Shown here: positions 508-52,914 of the stretch, one piece after another
Position numbering within the stretch: position 1 is the first letter of the stretch
Layout of the letters: every line of letters begins with the position of its first letter
Assembly: GCA_964359085.1 (NCBI GenBank)
Contig: CAYHRT010000001.1
Coordinates: 1-56,721, forward strand
Direction of reading: 5' to 3'
Length of the DNA stretch: 56,721 nt
Source: an uncultured Bdellovibrio sp.
Lineage (GTDB): Bacteria > Bdellovibrionota > Bacteriovoracia > Bacteriovoracales > Bacteriovoracaceae
The notes under the pieces: model-generated
Seen by the model: only the letters and a program-made list of their open reading frames with translations
The model's database searches: none
What the model was told of the DNA's origin: nothing
Position numbers and translations under genes: made by a program

Positions 508-580
508 GGGATTTATTTAGCACTTTGTTAACTTTTTGTCACACTGCCAAATGAATTGTGGCAAGATCGCAATATACTTA

Positions 581-769
581 GGGCCCGTCCAAGAATAACA
601 TGGACAAAATCGCGCCCAGATTTAGGTCAGATTTGAGCGCAACGATTGAGAAAAAACCGAGGCATAGCACAGCTATGTCGAGGTTTTTTCGATTGAGGCG
701 CGTTCAAAGATGGCCTGAAGATGGGATGCGAGATGTCCATGTTATTCTTGGACGGGCCCTTACACTTTC
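581..769 (+). repeat. Family-A long-hairpin intergenic element, copy 1 (189 nt)
   Basis: 581-606 is the exact reverse complement of 744-769 (26 bp). The interior folds on itself around an apical hairpin at about 657-683. It is homologous to 12318-12495. Confidence 0.9.
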
Positions 770-11625: not shown

Positions 11626-11643
11626 GGTGAAGGAATTTTGGCA

Positions 11644-12318
11644 ATGAAAGCTAAAAATGTTACAGCGTCCTGTCATACTTGCCCAGAATGTGAAGGCCGC
11701 AATGTCAAAAGTGGCCCAATCGAACTTAAATTTGATCGCCATATCTTCAAGGCCAGAACCGAAGTCTGTAGAGATTGTGGCAACTACTTGACCTCGCCTC
11801 AATTTGAAAAAAAATTGGAGGAATGGACGAAAAATCTTGGAGCCAACTTCCACCAATATCAGCCAGCCGTTTCAAAAGAAATTTATGAAGACCTTGAAAA
11901 ACTATCTCATCAGCACGGAGTCAAGCCCGCAGTTATGGCCAAAATTATCACCACTGTCTACCTGGAACGTTCAAGAACGACTGAGGGATATGCGGCCTTG
12001 AAGAAATTTATTTTTGATTCAAACACTTTTGCCAAACTAGATAGCGGTAAAAAAGAACGAATATCGATTCCTGTTAAATACGAAATCTACAAGGAGATTC
12101 AGAACTTTGCCCAGATTTGGAATCTCAAAAGCGACACTGAGGTCTTAGCTGAGGCAATCAATTTTTGTGTTGTTCTCCTTTGCCATAGCACTGCTCTCGG
12201 CGAGGAATTCAAACTTGAAATTCGCAAAATTAAAGAATTAGCTACCGTTCGAAATAGTGCCCCTCATATCAAGAAAGTCATTGAATCTGACGTACGCTAT
12301 ATTGCAAAAGCCGCTTAG
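11644..12318 (+). CDS. YgiT/MqsA-type zinc-ribbon protein with unrelated C-terminal domain (possible antitoxin)
   Basis: ATG 11644, with gaagga upstream. N-terminus CHTCPECEG..(26 aa)..CRDCGNYL matches the CxxC..CxxC YgiT-type finger. I cannot recognise an HTH in the C-terminal part of about 160 aa. Confidence 0.6.
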   Translation: MKAKNVTASCHTCPECEGRNVKSGPIELKFDRHIFKARTEVCRDCGNYLTSPQFEKKLEEWTKNLGANFHQYQPAVSKEIYEDLEKLSHQHGVKPAVMAKIITTVYLERSRTTEGYAALKKFIFDSNTFAKLDSGKKERISIPVKYEIYKEIQNFAQIWNLKSDTEVLAEAINFCVVLLCHSTALGEEFKLEIRKIKELATVRNSAPHIKKVIESDVRYIAKAA

Positions 12319-12495
12319 GAGTCGCGCATAAATAAATGTTACAGGTCGCGCCCAGATTTTAGTTAGATTTGAACGCGAAGATTGAGAAAAATGCGAGGAA
12401 TGGCAGGGCCATTTCGCGTATTTTTCGATTGAGAAGCGTTCAAAGATGACTGAAAGATGGGATGCGAGATGTAACATTTATTTATGCGCGACTCC
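12318..12495 (+). repeat. Family-A long-hairpin intergenic element, copy 2 (178 nt)
   Basis: 12318-12343 (ggagtcgcgcataaataaatgttaca) is the exact reverse complement of 12470-12495. The interior is homologous to 607-743. The element exactly fills the gap between two convergent stop codons. Confidence 0.9.
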
Positions 12496-15400
12496 TTAGC
12501 GCGCAGTCAGACTCAAAATATTTTCATACACCACATCATCGCCATAAAAAACTTGCAGGTTGAGCTTAAACGGCTTCTTTTTGGCCTTTGCCTTAAATTG
12601 GTAAGCAAGTTTCAATGCTACTTTTTCACCTCGGCCGATGGAATCGGTATTCAATTCTGCGCGCACGATCTTGAGCAGGCTGCCTGTCTCTTCATCATGC
12701 GAGGTCAGTTTCACGCGATAACCAGATGGCACGTTATCGCGCAAACCTGTTAACACCGTTTCAACTTCATGAATGCGATACTTCCACTTAAATGGCCAAA
12801 ATCCCCAATCGCGCCACTTCGGCTTGGCCTCAAAATTGACCGCAGCACTGATACCTGGGTTTACCTTCACTACGCCTTCGTATGCAATGGGAAGGCGCAG
12901 CTCTCGGGTCACACCATCACCGGGAACAAGCACATGACCTTTTAACCAGAATTTTTCGCCTGGAACAGCATCCTCGCCGATCTGGGCGGCCAAGACATCG
13001 TGCAGTTCAATTACGTGCTGGGAAGGAAGTTCGCGCAATTCGCTGGACTGGGCCTTCATTTCTATATTGCGACTTTTTTCTGAAATTGCTAGGCGACCTA
13101 GAGTAGGAGACAGTGCCACACCACCAGCATTGTATAAATTTATCCCAAGTGCCAGCTGTGCTCCTTGAATTGGGCCTCTGGAATCGTTGGAGATGATCAA
13201 GGCACTGTTGGCGGCCATTAGACGAACAAGGGCGTGGGTGTTAGCAAAATTTTGCGCTTGCTCGCGGCCCTTGGCAAAAGCGCGCGCCTCAGCACCGGGA
13301 AGTGTTTCTGCGAAGCCAATACGCTGCCCATCCTCCTCACCTTTAGCGCGAATTTCGCGCACACCACGTGCACGCGCTTCTGCGTATACCACCACTCGCG
13401 ATTCTTCTTTGGAGACAACAAAGAGATTGTTTTTGTTTTTGATAAAGTTTTTATCAAAATTATGGCGCCATTGCCCGGGATAGTTCAGGGTGAAATTCTG
13501 CCAATGGGCCTCGGTCGCCCCTTGGTTAAAACCGCCATTGTAGGATTCTTCGCAGGCACGCAGATAATCAGCAACTTTTTTATAGACACTGCTGCAATCA
13601 CGCCCACTAACATCGATCGGAATGACACCTGCGCCTTGGTAGGCAACTCTTGTGTCAGAAAAATTCTGACGTGGATCGCGATAGCGCTCAATGTCCTGTT
13701 CTATTTTGAGAATAACCTGATTGACTGCCGAAATAATTTCTTTGGCGGCGGCGATTTCTTCCGGTGACAACTCTGTTTCATCAGTGCTCTCAAGTAATTC
13801 TTTTGTAATAATATTTTTCTCATCATTCTTATTCATTGCTAATGCTTTCAACGTACCATTGCTTAGAACTACACGTGATCTCGGAACTGCCGCCAAAATT
13901 TCTTGCATCCGTTCGGCATAACCCATCGGAACATGGGTGCGCTCCGCCTGTTCTTCGGCCTGGCGACGTCCGAGTTCAAAACCTACCGCATAAGCTTCAT
14001 CGTAATCTACCTTGGAATTTAATCCATCGGCATAACCGGTTTCATCACCGACTAATTTTCCACGCAAGAGTCCGCGCCAACGTCCATCCAACTCGGCCGC
14101 AATCAAACCATACTTGAGACCATTGAGTTCGCCTAAGCGGCGGGCCTCGGCTTCACCCAGCGGTTTGCCTTTGCCACTGCCGACCGGCCGACCTTGCTTG
14201 AATCCAAGATCGCGAGCAGCGGCGAGATATTGTTGGTAACGATTATAGCGCTCTTGATAGGCAGCAAATTTCTCCGCAGTGATGCGCTCTACCGTTTTCG
14301 CCACTTGATCAGCGTCATTAAAAATCTTTTGCAACTGCTGCAGTTCCCCTTGGAATTGCGTCAATTCGCGCTGACGGACGGCGATTAAATTTTGAAATTG
14401 AGAAATATTCGAGCGCGACTCCCGAATCAGCGTTTCAAATTCTACGATGGCCGACTCTCTTGCGGCACGCTCCTGAATCAACTCGGCCCGTAGTGTTTCC
14501 ACTTCACGGCGAACACGTTCATTTTGCTCCAGCAGCGCCAACAGGCGCGAACGTTCATTTTCCAAGGTGCGAACAGCTTGCTGAAGTTGCGCCACTTTCT
14601 GTTCGGCGCGAACGACTTGCTCACGCGCACTTTGAACTGCTGAGGCATATTGGGAGACCTGGCGCTGTAACTCACGCACCTGATTTTGCAGTTGAACTAA
14701 AAACTCGCGCAATTGACCGAGACGTACTTCCATCTGGCGGGTGCGCGCTTCCGATTGAGCGAGTGTGCGCGCCATTTCTCGTACCCGTTCCTCCGTTTGA
14801 AGAACAGCTTGGGTGGCATGCTGTGATTCCACTTCTCGCTGTTGTAAGCGTCTGCCGCTCTCCTGCACTTCCTGCGCCACGCTGTTTCTTCGTACTTCTC
14901 CTTCTCGTATATTTTGTTCTGCGCGAGTCACTTCTGCTTGCCCTCGCGCCACACTCTGCTGGGCCCGCGCGATTGCACTATTGGCCTCTGTGAGACTGCG
15001 CTCAACTTGTTGCAACTCTGCAAGCAAGGTCGGACGACGCGTCTCAAGCTCGCGCTTTTGCCCTTCAAGTTTAGCACGCTCTTGCGCCAAAGAATTCAAT
15101 TCTTGCTGAACTCCACCAAGCTGCTTATTGGCCTCTCCGTGCGCCTGCCTTTTAAGCGCCAGTGCTTCTCTTAAGCCACGTACTTCGGCCTGCAAGCGTT
15201 CATTGTCTGCCCGCAAGGCGCGAATTTTGGCCTGGACCTCGGGAGTTTGTTCTCCCTGAGATAACTCTTTAAGCAGTTCGGCGTTTCTTTTCATGGTGGC
15301 CATCAAAGGTTCCATGACATTTTGACCTAAACGAATTTCTTCCGCCAAACTTGCAATCTGTGCTTGCAGTTCTCTTTCACGCCCTTTTAACTGGCGTTCA

Positions 15401-16347
15401 TGCTCTGGCAGGCGCGCCAGGGTTTCGGCGATTTGTCGTATTTGCCCATCGAGACCCGACAGTTGTGTGTTAATATTTTGCTTTTGCCGCTCGAGTTCAC
15501 GCACCTGATTCTGGCTGGCCAGTAATTCTTGCTTCGATGTTTCCCACTGAGCGCGAGCGCGCTCTAGCGCCTCTCTTGCTGGCGCAATTTCTTGCTCAAT
15601 TTGCCTCAGGCGCGCCTCATTTTGGGCGTGCAACTGGCGCTGTTGCTGAAGCATGGCCTTAAGTTGTCGATCTTGCTCGCGCAACCCGATCAAAGTATTT
15701 TCCAGGGCACTTCGCTCACGTGCCAGTTGCTCAAGCTCGCGCAGGAGCTGCTGGCGCTCGGCAATTAGATTGGCCTCATCGCTGCGAGTTTGGCGCAACT
15801 GCCCTTCCTTTGCATGCAGCTCGCCTTGGGCCAGGGCCTCTGCCCGCTCCACCTGGCGCAGCTCTTCGCGCTCCCGTTCTAACCGCTCAATTTCCCGTTG
15901 TAGATTGAGGCCCTCTGCCTCAAGACGGGTACGGATGTCTCTTTCACTATTTTGCAAACGCCCCTGCTCCACTATTAAATTGCTTAAACGGCCCTCGGCG
16001 CGTGGGATTTCCTCTCTAAGTCGCTGAATCTGGCCGCGATGATTGGCAATTTCGTTCTCGGAGTGGGTGATGGTTTGTTGGTTTGCCTGAATCGCCTCAT
16101 GATGGGAGCGAAGTTCCCCTTGGTGATGACTGATCTGACCTTCTTTGGAGCGAACATTCGCCAGCGCCTCATTGGCATCTTCACGTTTGTCGTCCGAAAT
16201 CGCTTTGGCCGCCAAATAGCGCTGATAATAAGTATCTTTATCAATCTCATCGGGAAGGGCACCAAAGGCCTTGCCTAAGAATAGGATTGTGAGGCCCAGC
16301 ATGGCCAAAATAAAGAAATGAAAGCGCAAATTATTTATCGCCGACAT
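12496..16347 (-). CDS. very large (1283 aa) exported or membrane-anchored coiled-coil protein
   Basis: N-terminal hydrophobic anchor FHFFILAMLGLTILFLGKAFG. About 650 aa of Q/E/R/L/A-rich heptad-like sequence, then a globular C-terminal part of about 550 aa. GC-rich relative to its neighbours. Confidence 0.85.
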   Translation of the reverse strand: MSAINNLRFHFFILAMLGLTILFLGKAFGALPDEIDKDTYYQRYLAAKAISDDKREDANEALANVRSKEGQISHHQGELRSHHEAIQANQQTITHSENEIANHRGQIQRLREEIPRAEGRLSNLIVEQGRLQNSERDIRTRLEAEGLNLQREIERLEREREELRQVERAEALAQGELHAKEGQLRQTRSDEANLIAERQQLLRELEQLARERSALENTLIGLREQDRQLKAMLQQQRQLHAQNEARLRQIEQEIAPAREALERARAQWETSKQELLASQNQVRELERQKQNINTQLSGLDGQIRQIAETLARLPEHERQLKGRERELQAQIASLAEEIRLGQNVMEPLMATMKRNAELLKELSQGEQTPEVQAKIRALRADNERLQAEVRGLREALALKRQAHGEANKQLGGVQQELNSLAQERAKLEGQKRELETRRPTLLAELQQVERSLTEANSAIARAQQSVARGQAEVTRAEQNIREGEVRRNSVAQEVQESGRRLQQREVESQHATQAVLQTEERVREMARTLAQSEARTRQMEVRLGQLREFLVQLQNQVRELQRQVSQYASAVQSAREQVVRAEQKVAQLQQAVRTLENERSRLLALLEQNERVRREVETLRAELIQERAARESAIVEFETLIRESRSNISQFQNLIAVRQRELTQFQGELQQLQKIFNDADQVAKTVERITAEKFAAYQERYNRYQQYLAAARDLGFKQGRPVGSGKGKPLGEAEARRLGELNGLKYGLIAAELDGRWRGLLRGKLVGDETGYADGLNSKVDYDEAYAVGFELGRRQAEEQAERTHVPMGYAERMQEILAAVPRSRVVLSNGTLKALAMNKNDEKNIITKELLESTDETELSPEEIAAAKEIISAVNQVILKIEQDIERYRDPRQNFSDTRVAYQGAGVIPIDVSGRDCSSVYKKVADYLRACEESYNGGFNQGATEAHWQNFTLNYPGQWRHNFDKNFIKNKNNLFVVSKEESRVVVYAEARARGVREIRAKGEEDGQRIGFAETLPGAEARAFAKGREQAQNFANTHALVRLMAANSALIISNDSRGPIQGAQLALGINLYNAGGVALSPTLGRLAISEKSRNIEMKAQSSELRELPSQHVIELHDVLAAQIGEDAVPGEKFWLKGHVLVPGDGVTRELRLPIAYEGVVKVNPGISAAVNFEAKPKWRDWGFWPFKWKYRIHEVETVLTGLRDNVPSGYRVKLTSHDEETGSLLKIVRAELNTDSIGRGEKVALKLAYQFKAKAKKKPFKLNLQVFYGDDVVYENILSLTAR

Positions 16348-30276: not shown

Positions 30277-30450
30277 AACCTGAGTTTGGGATTAGGGTCG
30301 TAGCGAGAAGTCGTCTGACAAAGGAGTTCAAGGACGCACAAGTGAAAAACCGGAGGCGTAGCAGAGCTACGTCGAGGATTTTGAACGCGGAGGACGCTGA
30401 AATCCTTTGTTAGGCGGCTTCGCAGTAGACCCTAATCCCAAACTCAGGTT
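30277..30450 (+). repeat. Family-B long-hairpin intergenic element, copy 1 (174 nt)
   Basis: A 23-bp perfect terminal inverted repeat, aacctgagtttgggattagggtc / gaccctaatcccaaactcaggtt. 170 of 174 nt are identical to 52741-52914. Confidence 0.92.
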
Positions 30451-30489
30451 CATAAGTTCTTTAACATCCATTTGCCTAAGGAGATTGCT

Positions 30490-31089
30490 ATGCAATTTAT
30501 TAAGTGTTTGCTCGTCGCTATGCCTTTTTTATTTACCAGCGCCTTCGCCAGTGTCGAAGGCCTGTTCCATGTTGAAAGCTCTTTTTCCTATCTCAAAGGG
30601 AGCAAGACCCTGACTGTACCTGCGGGAGATTATAAAGCAGATTTGAAGGTAAGCAATTCTTCCATGACTTTAAAATTCAGAGATCAGACCGATGAAAAGC
30701 ATAAAATAAAAATGGAAGTCCCACGCGATTCTGTGCCCTCACGCAACGGCAGCTTCCATTATGAAAGCACTCAAGTTGAGCAACCCTTTGATCTATCAGG
30801 TCAGGTGGCGACGCAAGAAGAGAGAACTCCAACCCAATCACGCTATGAGAGCTGCACTTACCAGCGCCCTGTGCAAGTTTGCACCATTGATCCCTACGGT
30901 CGTCGTATTTGTCGCGTAGAATATCAAACAGTACAGGGTAACCACCAAGTGCTGTTTCACTATCTGATTGCACTCCGATCAACACTGGTGAATCTCGAAG
31001 GTGCCACTGATCGCAATCTCTTGGGAAATTTCTCCGGTACCGAAAATATCGAACAAATTATCACCGAACATGTGGGAGCTTGCTATTAA
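30490..31089 (+). CDS. secreted hypothetical protein
   Basis: Start trimmed to ATG 30490 (aaggag 6 nt upstream). Signal peptide MQFIKCLLVAMPFLFTSAFA. Confidence 0.55.
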   Translation: MQFIKCLLVAMPFLFTSAFASVEGLFHVESSFSYLKGSKTLTVPAGDYKADLKVSNSSMTLKFRDQTDEKHKIKMEVPRDSVPSRNGSFHYESTQVEQPFDLSGQVATQEERTPTQSRYESCTYQRPVQVCTIDPYGRRICRVEYQTVQGNHQVLFHYLIALRSTLVNLEGATDRNLLGNFSGTENIEQIITEHVGACY

Positions 31090-31100
31090 GCATAATAAGT

Positions 31101-31188
31101 GAGGTACCATGACCCCTTTGGGACTCATCGCGCCACTTAGCGGCTGCGGTGAGTCCCAAAGGGGTCATGGTACCTCTCATTTTTTTTT
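31101..31188 (+). terminator. intrinsic terminator with an unusually long perfect stem
   Basis: gaggtaccatgacccctttgggactca (31101-31127) pairs perfectly with 31150-31176. A 22-nt loop, then T9 after 4 nt. Confidence 0.75.
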
Positions 31189-52740: not shown

Positions 52741-52914
52741 AACCTGAGTTTGGAATTAGGGTCGTAGCGAGAAGTCGTCTGACAAAGGAGTTCAAGGACG
52801 CACAAGTGAAAAACCGGAGGCGTAGCAGAGCTACGTCGAGGATTTTGAACGCGGAGGACGCTGAAATCCTTTGTCAGGCGGCTTCGCAGTAGACCCTAAT
52901 TTCAAACTCAGGTT
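52741..52914 (+). repeat. Family-B long-hairpin intergenic element, copy 2 (174 nt)
   Basis: Differs from 30277-30450 at only 4 positions (52754, 52875, 52901, 52902), all of them in paired positions. Confidence 0.92.

Follow-up and report, generated by a model that had tools for sequence, protein, structure and literature searches.

The window, by which we mean the whole 56,721-nucleotide stretch analyzed here, holds just two copies of a long-hairpin element, named family A, according to a profile search. Copy 1 (A1) occupies positions 581-759 (179 nt) and copy 2 (A2) positions 12318-12495 (178 nt); they are set 12 kb apart among ordinary genes, and a conserved 19-mer occurs twice, against 0.03 expected occurrences. 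The initial annotation placed A1 between two divergent AraC-family genes. This is right for the gene at 830-1717, which is of the AraC type with HTH_18 and GyrI-like domains, whereas the truncated minus-strand ORF upstream gives no Pfam match. The sole ORF running through A1 (600-980) is missing from A2, and a sigma-70 promoter scan found no promoter-like site in or beside either copy. The parts of the two copies are as follows.

578..580, plus strand: left target-site duplication of copy 1, TTA, with a matching TTA on the other side
581..606, plus strand: left terminal inverted repeat of copy 1, that is, its outer stem P1; exact reverse complement of 734-759, fitting GGGCYNGYNNAANAATAA, the skeleton common to the terminal repeats of the family across subfamilies
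607..733, plus strand: conserved interior of copy 1 (helices P2-P6), as delimited by folds, family covariation, and loop conservation
661..679, plus strand: apical hairpin of copy 1 (8 bp, 3-nt loop); terminator-like match, with the apex module common to family B (see below)
734..759, plus strand: right terminal inverted repeat of copy 1, the other side of the outer stem; exact reverse complement of 581-606
760..762, plus strand: right target-site duplication of copy 1, TTA, a direct repeat
12315..12317, plus strand: left target-site duplication of copy 2, TTA, which, joined to the element's first G, makes the TAG stop of ORF 11638-12318
12318..12495, plus strand: copy 2, with terminal inverted repeats at 12318-12343 and 12470-12495 and interior at 12344-12469 (nhmmer E 1e-36)
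12496..12498, plus strand: right target-site duplication of copy 2, TTA, which reads TAA on the minus strand and there provides the stop codon of ORF 12496-16347

The palindrome first described at A1 is real: the sequence at 581-606 (GGGCCCGTCCAAGAATAACATGGACA) has an exact reverse complement downstream, although this right arm lies at 734-759 and not at 744-769, a slip of 10 bases. The second copy stands where it was placed, and its 26-bp stem, formed by 12318-12343 with 12470-12495, is perfect as well. The outer stems of the two copies are unlike at 12 of 26 positions, each remaining a perfect 26-bp helix made of Watson-Crick pairs only, with no wobble. The interiors had been judged by eye to be roughly four-fifths identical, and alignment gives 103 identical columns out of 128 (80%). 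The apical hairpin of A1 was located at 661-679, preceded by an A run and followed by GAGG and a T run, and CGATTGAG is indeed a direct repeat that faces itself. A direct TTA repeat on both sides of A1 and of A2 was absent from the initial annotation.

Folded as RNA, A1 reaches -120.4 kcal/mol on the plus strand and -92.2 kcal/mol on the minus strand, and A2 reaches -107.8 and -82.4 kcal/mol, respectively, so that the plus strand has an advantage of about 25 to 28 kcal/mol in both copies. The z-scores relative to shuffled sequences are about -18 for A1 and -15 for A2, with none of 200 shuffles being as stable. The strand-biased wobble noticed at the outset is evident, each copy forming five G-U pairs when its plus strand is folded and none when the minus strand is. 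The patterned mispairs are present too: AGATTT lies opposite AAGAT twice in both A1 and A2, where they form 2x2 GA/GA loops. In A1, the non-canonical positions of the fold are as follows.

614/727, 623/717, 627/713, 637/703, and 662/678, plus strand: G-U pairs
619-620/720-721, 630-631/709-710, and 659-660/680-681, plus strand: GA/GA loops
644-649/691-696, plus strand: GAUUGA opposite GAUUGA, holding further GA/GA pairs

From the base to the apex, the plus-strand rod comprises P1, three inner helices parted by 2x2 GA/GA loops, a 6x6 GAUUGA/GAUUGA loop, an A/U-rich helix, and the 8-bp apical hairpin, with five tandem G·A/A·G loops along its length. The first two GA/GA loops of copy 1 are 11 nt apart, and the GA/GA motif recurs at about one helical turn. 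With its A and T runs, the apical hairpin resembles a bidirectional intrinsic terminator.

Two further elements of the window form a separate family, B.

30277..30450, plus strand: family-B element B1, with its own arms and terminal inverted repeats, tied to family A via the apical module alone
52741..52914, plus strand: family-B element B2, unlike B1 at 4 positions, all 4 of which keep plus-strand pairing

Between B1 and B2, one G-C pair has become A-T through a double change, another G-C has become G-T, and one G-T has become G-C. Family B has a 23-bp terminal inverted repeat (AACCTGAGTTTGG...) and folds to -98.7 kcal/mol on the plus strand versus -77.6 kcal/mol on the minus strand. Its overlap with family A is limited to an apex module of about 42 nt, found by nhmmer at the apices of B1 and B2 (E 3e-7), with a common 25-mer. 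A 25-base apex pattern drawn from A1, A2, and B matched nothing in viral or genome collections, the pattern being too strict. Elsewhere in the window, a hairpin at 31094-31183, with 38-nt arms and a 14-nt loop followed by nine T, lies directly after the ORF at 30472-31089; it is terminator-like and could belong to another repeat family.

Family A extends well beyond the window. A pattern for the left conserved block retrieved 68 loci from JGI metagenomes, and a slightly relaxed version retrieved at least 119 loci from GTDB representative genomes, about 8 of the genome matches being chance hits inside coding regions. In all, 111 complete relatives were gathered from metagenomes and from metagenome-assembled genomes (MAGs) assigned to about eight phyla. 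The copies span 177-183 bp and are non-coding. The carrier MAGs, which come from groundwater and sediment, are labeled Desulfobacterota, Chromatiaceae, Terriglobia, Solibacteraceae, Nitrospinota, Nitrospirae, Elusimicrobia/Elusimicrobiota, Cloacimonadota, Oligoflexia, Actinomycetota, and Chloroflexota, as well as Bdellovibrionota, and phylum labels that stem from a single MAG may include binning errors. The window belongs to a Bdellovibrionota bacterium, as shown by a flanking protein that is 99% identical to one from an NCBI MAG of that name; the MAG contig is near-identical to the window and also carries the element. The copy of a Chloroflexota MAG (L166) has a subfamily sequence near-identical to that of Desulfobacterota-type copies (L008, L015, and L060), a likeness that could be due to horizontal transfer or to binning contamination.

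Against Rfam, the window gave no match at the gathering threshold, the region 540-800 gave none at E values up to 10, and no Rfam overlap was found with the elements of 16 diverse loci. Literature matches by sequence strings returned unrelated primers only. The family is apparently undescribed.

More than 30 of the 68 JGI loci lie on contigs that end inside the element or swap to the arm of another copy, which indicates that this repeat breaks short-read assemblies or renders them chimeric. Broken contigs are exemplified by L001 (1-110) and L193 (1540-1644); the former shows a third variant of the left arm, GGACCCGTGTCATAATAAATTAGCCA. Several atypical forms were also encountered. A variant of about 330 nt in L005 and L013 (motif at 252 and 3568 on the minus-oriented locus) has an extra stretch of about 110 nt after the left conserved block, and the copies in L087, L138, L140, and L170 are interrupted or truncated near the apex. 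In L113 (1470-1640), and also in L067, L033, and L042, the left block (GGTYATAAAC..TCGCGCCCAGATTTAGGTTAGATTTGACCGA) is intergenic and is not accompanied by a recognizable right arm; such blocks may represent solo halves or a diverged subfamily, among other options.

The collection of relatives allowed the structural claim to be examined across the family. The plus strand folds better in all 94 of 94 distinct copies of typical length, with a mean difference of -24.8 kcal/mol and a mean of 7.3 G-U pairs per copy on the plus strand versus 2.0 on the minus strand. Among alignment cells, G·T outnumbers A·C 624 to 166, or, with each subfamily cluster counted a single time, 287 to 98. By helix, the cells are distributed as follows.

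P1: G·T 103, A·C 35
P2-4: G·T 399, A·C 43
P5: G·T 24, A·C 20
P6: G·T 74, A·C 25

Covariation was assessed on a MAFFT alignment of 93 copies with a consensus structure of 71 pairs and 500 shuffles. The observed values, none of which was reached by any of the 500 shuffles, are set below beside those of the shuffles and of pairs whose partners were slid by 1-3 columns.

Cells in a standard pair: observed 92.2%, shuffled 79.6%, slid 32-53%
Pairs changed on both sides (of 71): observed 52, shuffled 36.2, slid 26-38
Covariation score: observed 0.379, shuffled 0.158, slid 0.04-0.09

Conservation of the left block is partly a matter of construction, since the search patterns demanded that block. Outside the search pattern, the GA dinucleotides of the right arm are kept in 85-91 of 91 sequences, and GATTGA is kept likewise. 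Across the MAGs of the approximately eight phyla, conservation is higher in the interior than in the terminal repeats. Neither the needs of double-stranded DNA nor copying from arm to arm predicts a wobble excess on one strand or conserved purine-purine loops. The proposal of the initial annotation that structure is constrained on the plus strand stands for the family as a whole, given the uniform strand preference, the G·T excess, the covariation, and the near-invariant GA/GA loops: the interior hairpin of family A is under strand-specific constraint.

The same annotation set this structure against an origin as a MITE, and that part of its view has to be given up. The family-A element is a non-autonomous DNA transposon (MITE) of about 180 bp, with a 3-bp TWA target-site duplication, terminal inverted repeats, and one outer stem per genome. 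TWA is found on both sides of 76 of the 111 complete copies, and 66 of these 76 pairs are identical (41 TAA and 25 TTA), 10 being discordant; about half would be expected to be identical if the sides were independent. The other complete copies are mostly one base off TWA. The target is often C-TWA-G, the triplet commonly being preceded by C and followed by G, and the element ends in terminal inverted repeats of 25-26 bp (GGG.../...CCC). Outer stems vary between subfamilies, while each metagenome or MAG shares a single one, a pattern of amplification from a master copy.

At the site of A2 in a relative (flanking protein 73% identical; site sequence diverged), the convergent genes are 5 nt apart and no element is present. 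Among long flanking ORFs, the stop codon coincides exactly with the duplication in 17 of the 59 that lie upstream and 13 of the 48 that lie downstream, so that 30 of 107 gene-proximal ends (loci L004-L188) sit exactly on a stop, as A2 does on both sides. The stop is formed either by the duplicated TAA or by TTA plus the first G of the element (TAG). With the duplicated triplet acting as the stop codon of the neighboring ORF, a stop is restored by insertion on one side or on both.

A separate plasmid case bears on the relation between ends and interior. Plasmid NZ_CP087953.1 of Desulfosarcina sp. BuS5 carries, at about 100.0-100.2 kb (L194, 3001-3163), a MITE of about 160 bp with a TAA duplication, which has the family-A terminal inverted repeat (GGGCTCGCGCAAAAATAAC...) but an unrelated hairpin interior. 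The same ends with an unrelated interior indicate that the two are separable modules. Because the outer stems are terminal inverted repeats and can carry another interior, their concerted change is explicable without selection on RNA: pairing may account for it, but so may the fit to a transposase or correction by template switching.

These features raise the question of whether family A might be a plain selfish MITE, with an incidental structure, a palindrome kept at the DNA level because both ends must suit one transposase and template switching corrects quasi-palindromes, and a G·T excess due to mutation bias. Such an element would typically show the target-site duplication, terminal inverted repeats, and amplification seen here, and the wobble-free outer stems of A1 and A2 are what copying from arm to arm would give. 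We nevertheless regard this explanation as unlikely. G·T exceeds A·C about 3- to 4-fold overall and 9-fold in P2-4, at positions that vary between subfamilies; interior helices, which are not transposase ends, covary through GC, AU, UA, and CG; and the tandem GA/GA loops and fixed G·U pairs have been retained and not "corrected."

Of the two marks of an ordinary MITE named beforehand, target-site duplications and a cognate transposase, the first is clear and the second was not found. No transposase or autonomous element with family-A ends was detected in about 1.1 Mb of loci, in the window, or in the plasmid collection, and no transposase emerged when the element and its terminal repeat were compared with plasmids by blastn. 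The recurrent neighboring proteins of the copies belong to housekeeping families only, with no transposase among them, and genes for HUH or Y1 enzymes or for integrases do not recur in their vicinity. Long-range right blocks, sought as the far end of an autonomous parent, revealed no long element with these ends. Distant pairs of terminal inverted repeats turned out to enclose ordinary genes, and one candidate for a long autonomous parent, a 1276-bp span (L094), resolved into a variant element plus a solo end. The ends of family A presumably resemble the inverted repeat of IS903. A 3-bp duplication marks IS5 and PIF/Harbinger elements (PMC4122938), and mPing duplicates TAA (PMC6042816). From the duplication, we infer that a DDE transposase of the IS5/PIF-Harbinger type would move the family-A element.

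Which molecule carries the constraint can be approached through the orientation of the copies. Random orientation without a plus-strand wobble bias had been named as evidence against a selected structure; the orientation proves to be neither random nor strict, and the bias is present. The left neighbor is co-oriented with the element in 60 cases versus 23, while the right neighbor is on the opposite strand, reading into the element, in 44 versus 42 (Fisher p = 0.007). Convergent contexts outnumber divergent ones 23 to 11, and copies in tandem-gene contexts are sense in 27 cases and antisense in 16; the bias in orientation is modest. The orientation of the element is unrelated to local GC skew (43 against 40). 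With DNA energy parameters, the plus strand still folds better (-62.5 versus -53.9 kcal/mol), the gap between strands being smaller than with RNA parameters. Since orientation tracks the upstream gene and not GC skew, and since the gap shrinks with DNA parameters, a plus-strand RNA made by read-through is weakly favored over single-stranded DNA as the constrained molecule. The terminator-like apical hairpin fits poorly with a full-length RNA hairpin, as it would cut transcripts before the right arm.

The level at which selection acts is also informative. Hairpin stability is equal in sense and antisense contexts. Private changes in the youngest subfamily include 5 G·T and 6 A·C, whereas the older, more diverse clusters have 96 G·T versus 53 A·C. 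A stability independent of context, together with the lack of bias in the youngest subfamily, suggests that the constraint is seen over the long life of lineages and not in recent single insertions. Both observations, the independence from transcriptional context and the youngest subfamily without a G·T bias (5 versus 6), are also what a plain selfish MITE would show, although under that explanation the strand asymmetry would call for a mutation bias, and a replication-linked, strand-specific one is not apparent in the absence of a link to GC skew.

A constraint that looks intrinsic to the lineage of the element, and not to its genomic context, would also fit plus-strand single-stranded DNA, serving as the substrate for mobilization or another DNA transaction in the manner of IS200/IS605 ends, integron attC sites, or REP/RAYT. 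The DNA-parameter fold still favors the plus strand, and DNA, too, stably accommodates tandem sheared G·A pairs. On balance, we would hold such a role to be highly improbable. Single-strand elements typically have subterminal hairpins or R''/R' core sites and a linked Y1/HUH transposase or integrase. Single-strand transposons such as IS200/IS605 and IS91 are not known to have a target-site duplication or terminal inverted repeats, both of which are clear in family A; orientation is not biased relative to local GC skew, and neither HUH, Y1, nor integrase genes recur near the copies. An identity as an IS200/IS605-derived PATE, a REP/REPIN, or an integron attC was rejected given the duplication, the terminal inverted repeats, and the lack of a recurrent neighboring gene. 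The attC option, considered in view of the Cass2/GyrI-like neighbor, was also dismissed because there is no cassette array and there are no core sites.

We propose that family A is a MITE with a strand-constrained interior, moved in trans and acting in read-through RNA as a 3' structure, a reading to which we assign a probability of roughly 60%. In this scheme, a DDE transposase of the IS5/PIF-Harbinger type would move the element in trans by cut-and-paste. The element inserts at T-W-A, very often at the TAA/TAG stop of a gene, duplicating three bases and restoring the stop. The constrained molecule would most likely be plus-strand RNA produced by read-through of the upstream gene, in which the hairpin may act as a 3'-end structure that stabilizes, terminates, or is processed, or else as a protein-binding rod. 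Lineages that keep the structure would persist and then seed further copies.

A more specific purpose for the interior has also to be weighed. It might be a structured-RNA gene or a protein-binding RNA module carried as cargo between MITE ends, with the host or the element itself as the user, beyond the role of a generic 3' hairpin. An interior that outlasts its terminal repeats in comparisons across phyla is what cargo would look like, as are near-invariant GA/GA loops spaced by about one helical turn, an apex module common to the otherwise different family B, and terminal repeats that elsewhere hold a different interior. We find this very unlikely all the same: A1 and A2 have no promoter-like site in or by them, the searches against Rfam gave no match, no partner protein recurs nearby, and the 16 copies in tandem contexts that are antisense to both neighbors fit poorly with such an RNA. 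Retron msd, 6S RNA, and type I toxin-antitoxin identities were set aside for want of a reverse transcriptase, an Rfam match, or a conserved small ORF. In a broader form, the idea is that the interior, as a truly functional RNA or as a module acting in single-stranded form, lies between transposon ends and has spread across phyla; in our estimation, this is quite unlikely. Such a module could be a protein-binding rod with tandem G·A sites about one helical turn apart, or a one-strand structure used for the element's own mobilization, and in both cases family A would exceed a MITE whose hairpin is incidental.

The choice between structured RNA and MITE is a false one here: a clearly mobile element has retained a strand-specific, covarying hairpin with near-invariant non-canonical loops. 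As a kind of element, family A is ordinary; what is unusual is how well its structure has been kept. It is widespread, lands on stop codons yet spares them, and disrupts short-read assemblies. Should the proposed role in RNA be true, family A would amount to a portable RNA module for 3' ends, carried around by transposition, and would be of use in annotation and in work on the rewiring of transcript ends by mobile elements; otherwise, it is still an ordinary MITE.

Among known systems, the Tourist-like MITEs of the IS5/PIF-Harbinger ("PHIS") group, such as mPing, are alike in their 3-bp TAA/TTA duplication and terminal inverted repeats (PMC4122938; PMC6042816), as well as in small non-coding copies and AT-rich targets. 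Family A is unlike them in an interior that is better conserved than the ends, in its strand-specific covarying hairpin, and in its bacterial hosts of several phyla. Chunjie of Geobacter uraniireducens is alike in size (178-235 bp), in RNA fold (-98 to -130 kcal/mol), and in its Desulfobacterota-type host (PMC3184786), but it has 21-bp terminal inverted repeats and 9-bp direct repeats, e.g., ACGACCGGT (PMC6042816). A 9-bp duplication in the one and a 3-bp duplication in the other make these different families, and the identity of family A as Chunjie is excluded on that ground.

The ERIC/YPAL and Correia (nemis) repeats of enterobacteria and Neisseria are, like family A, palindromic MITE-like repeats at the 3' ends of genes, with other sequences and duplications. 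Correia and ERIC duplicate TA. Their effect on RNA is experimental, whereas for family A it is one that we infer. ERIC/YPAL and Correia repeats are co-transcribed, and the hairpins that they form as RNA influence how mRNA is processed and how stable it is (PMC3184786). The bcr1 element of the Bacillus cereus group is likewise a mobile, non-coding element of about 155-180 bp, with direct-repeat flanks and compensatory changes that keep its structure, and its transcription has been shown (PMC3184786). Its direct repeats measure 5 bp, it folds in a cruciform-like manner with two stem-loops, and its range is limited to one species group. Family A duplicates 3 bp (TWA), folds into one long rod, and occurs across a wide range of taxa; the sequences of the two are dissimilar. 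With these differences, bcr1 and ERIC/Correia are the closest described parallels to family A.
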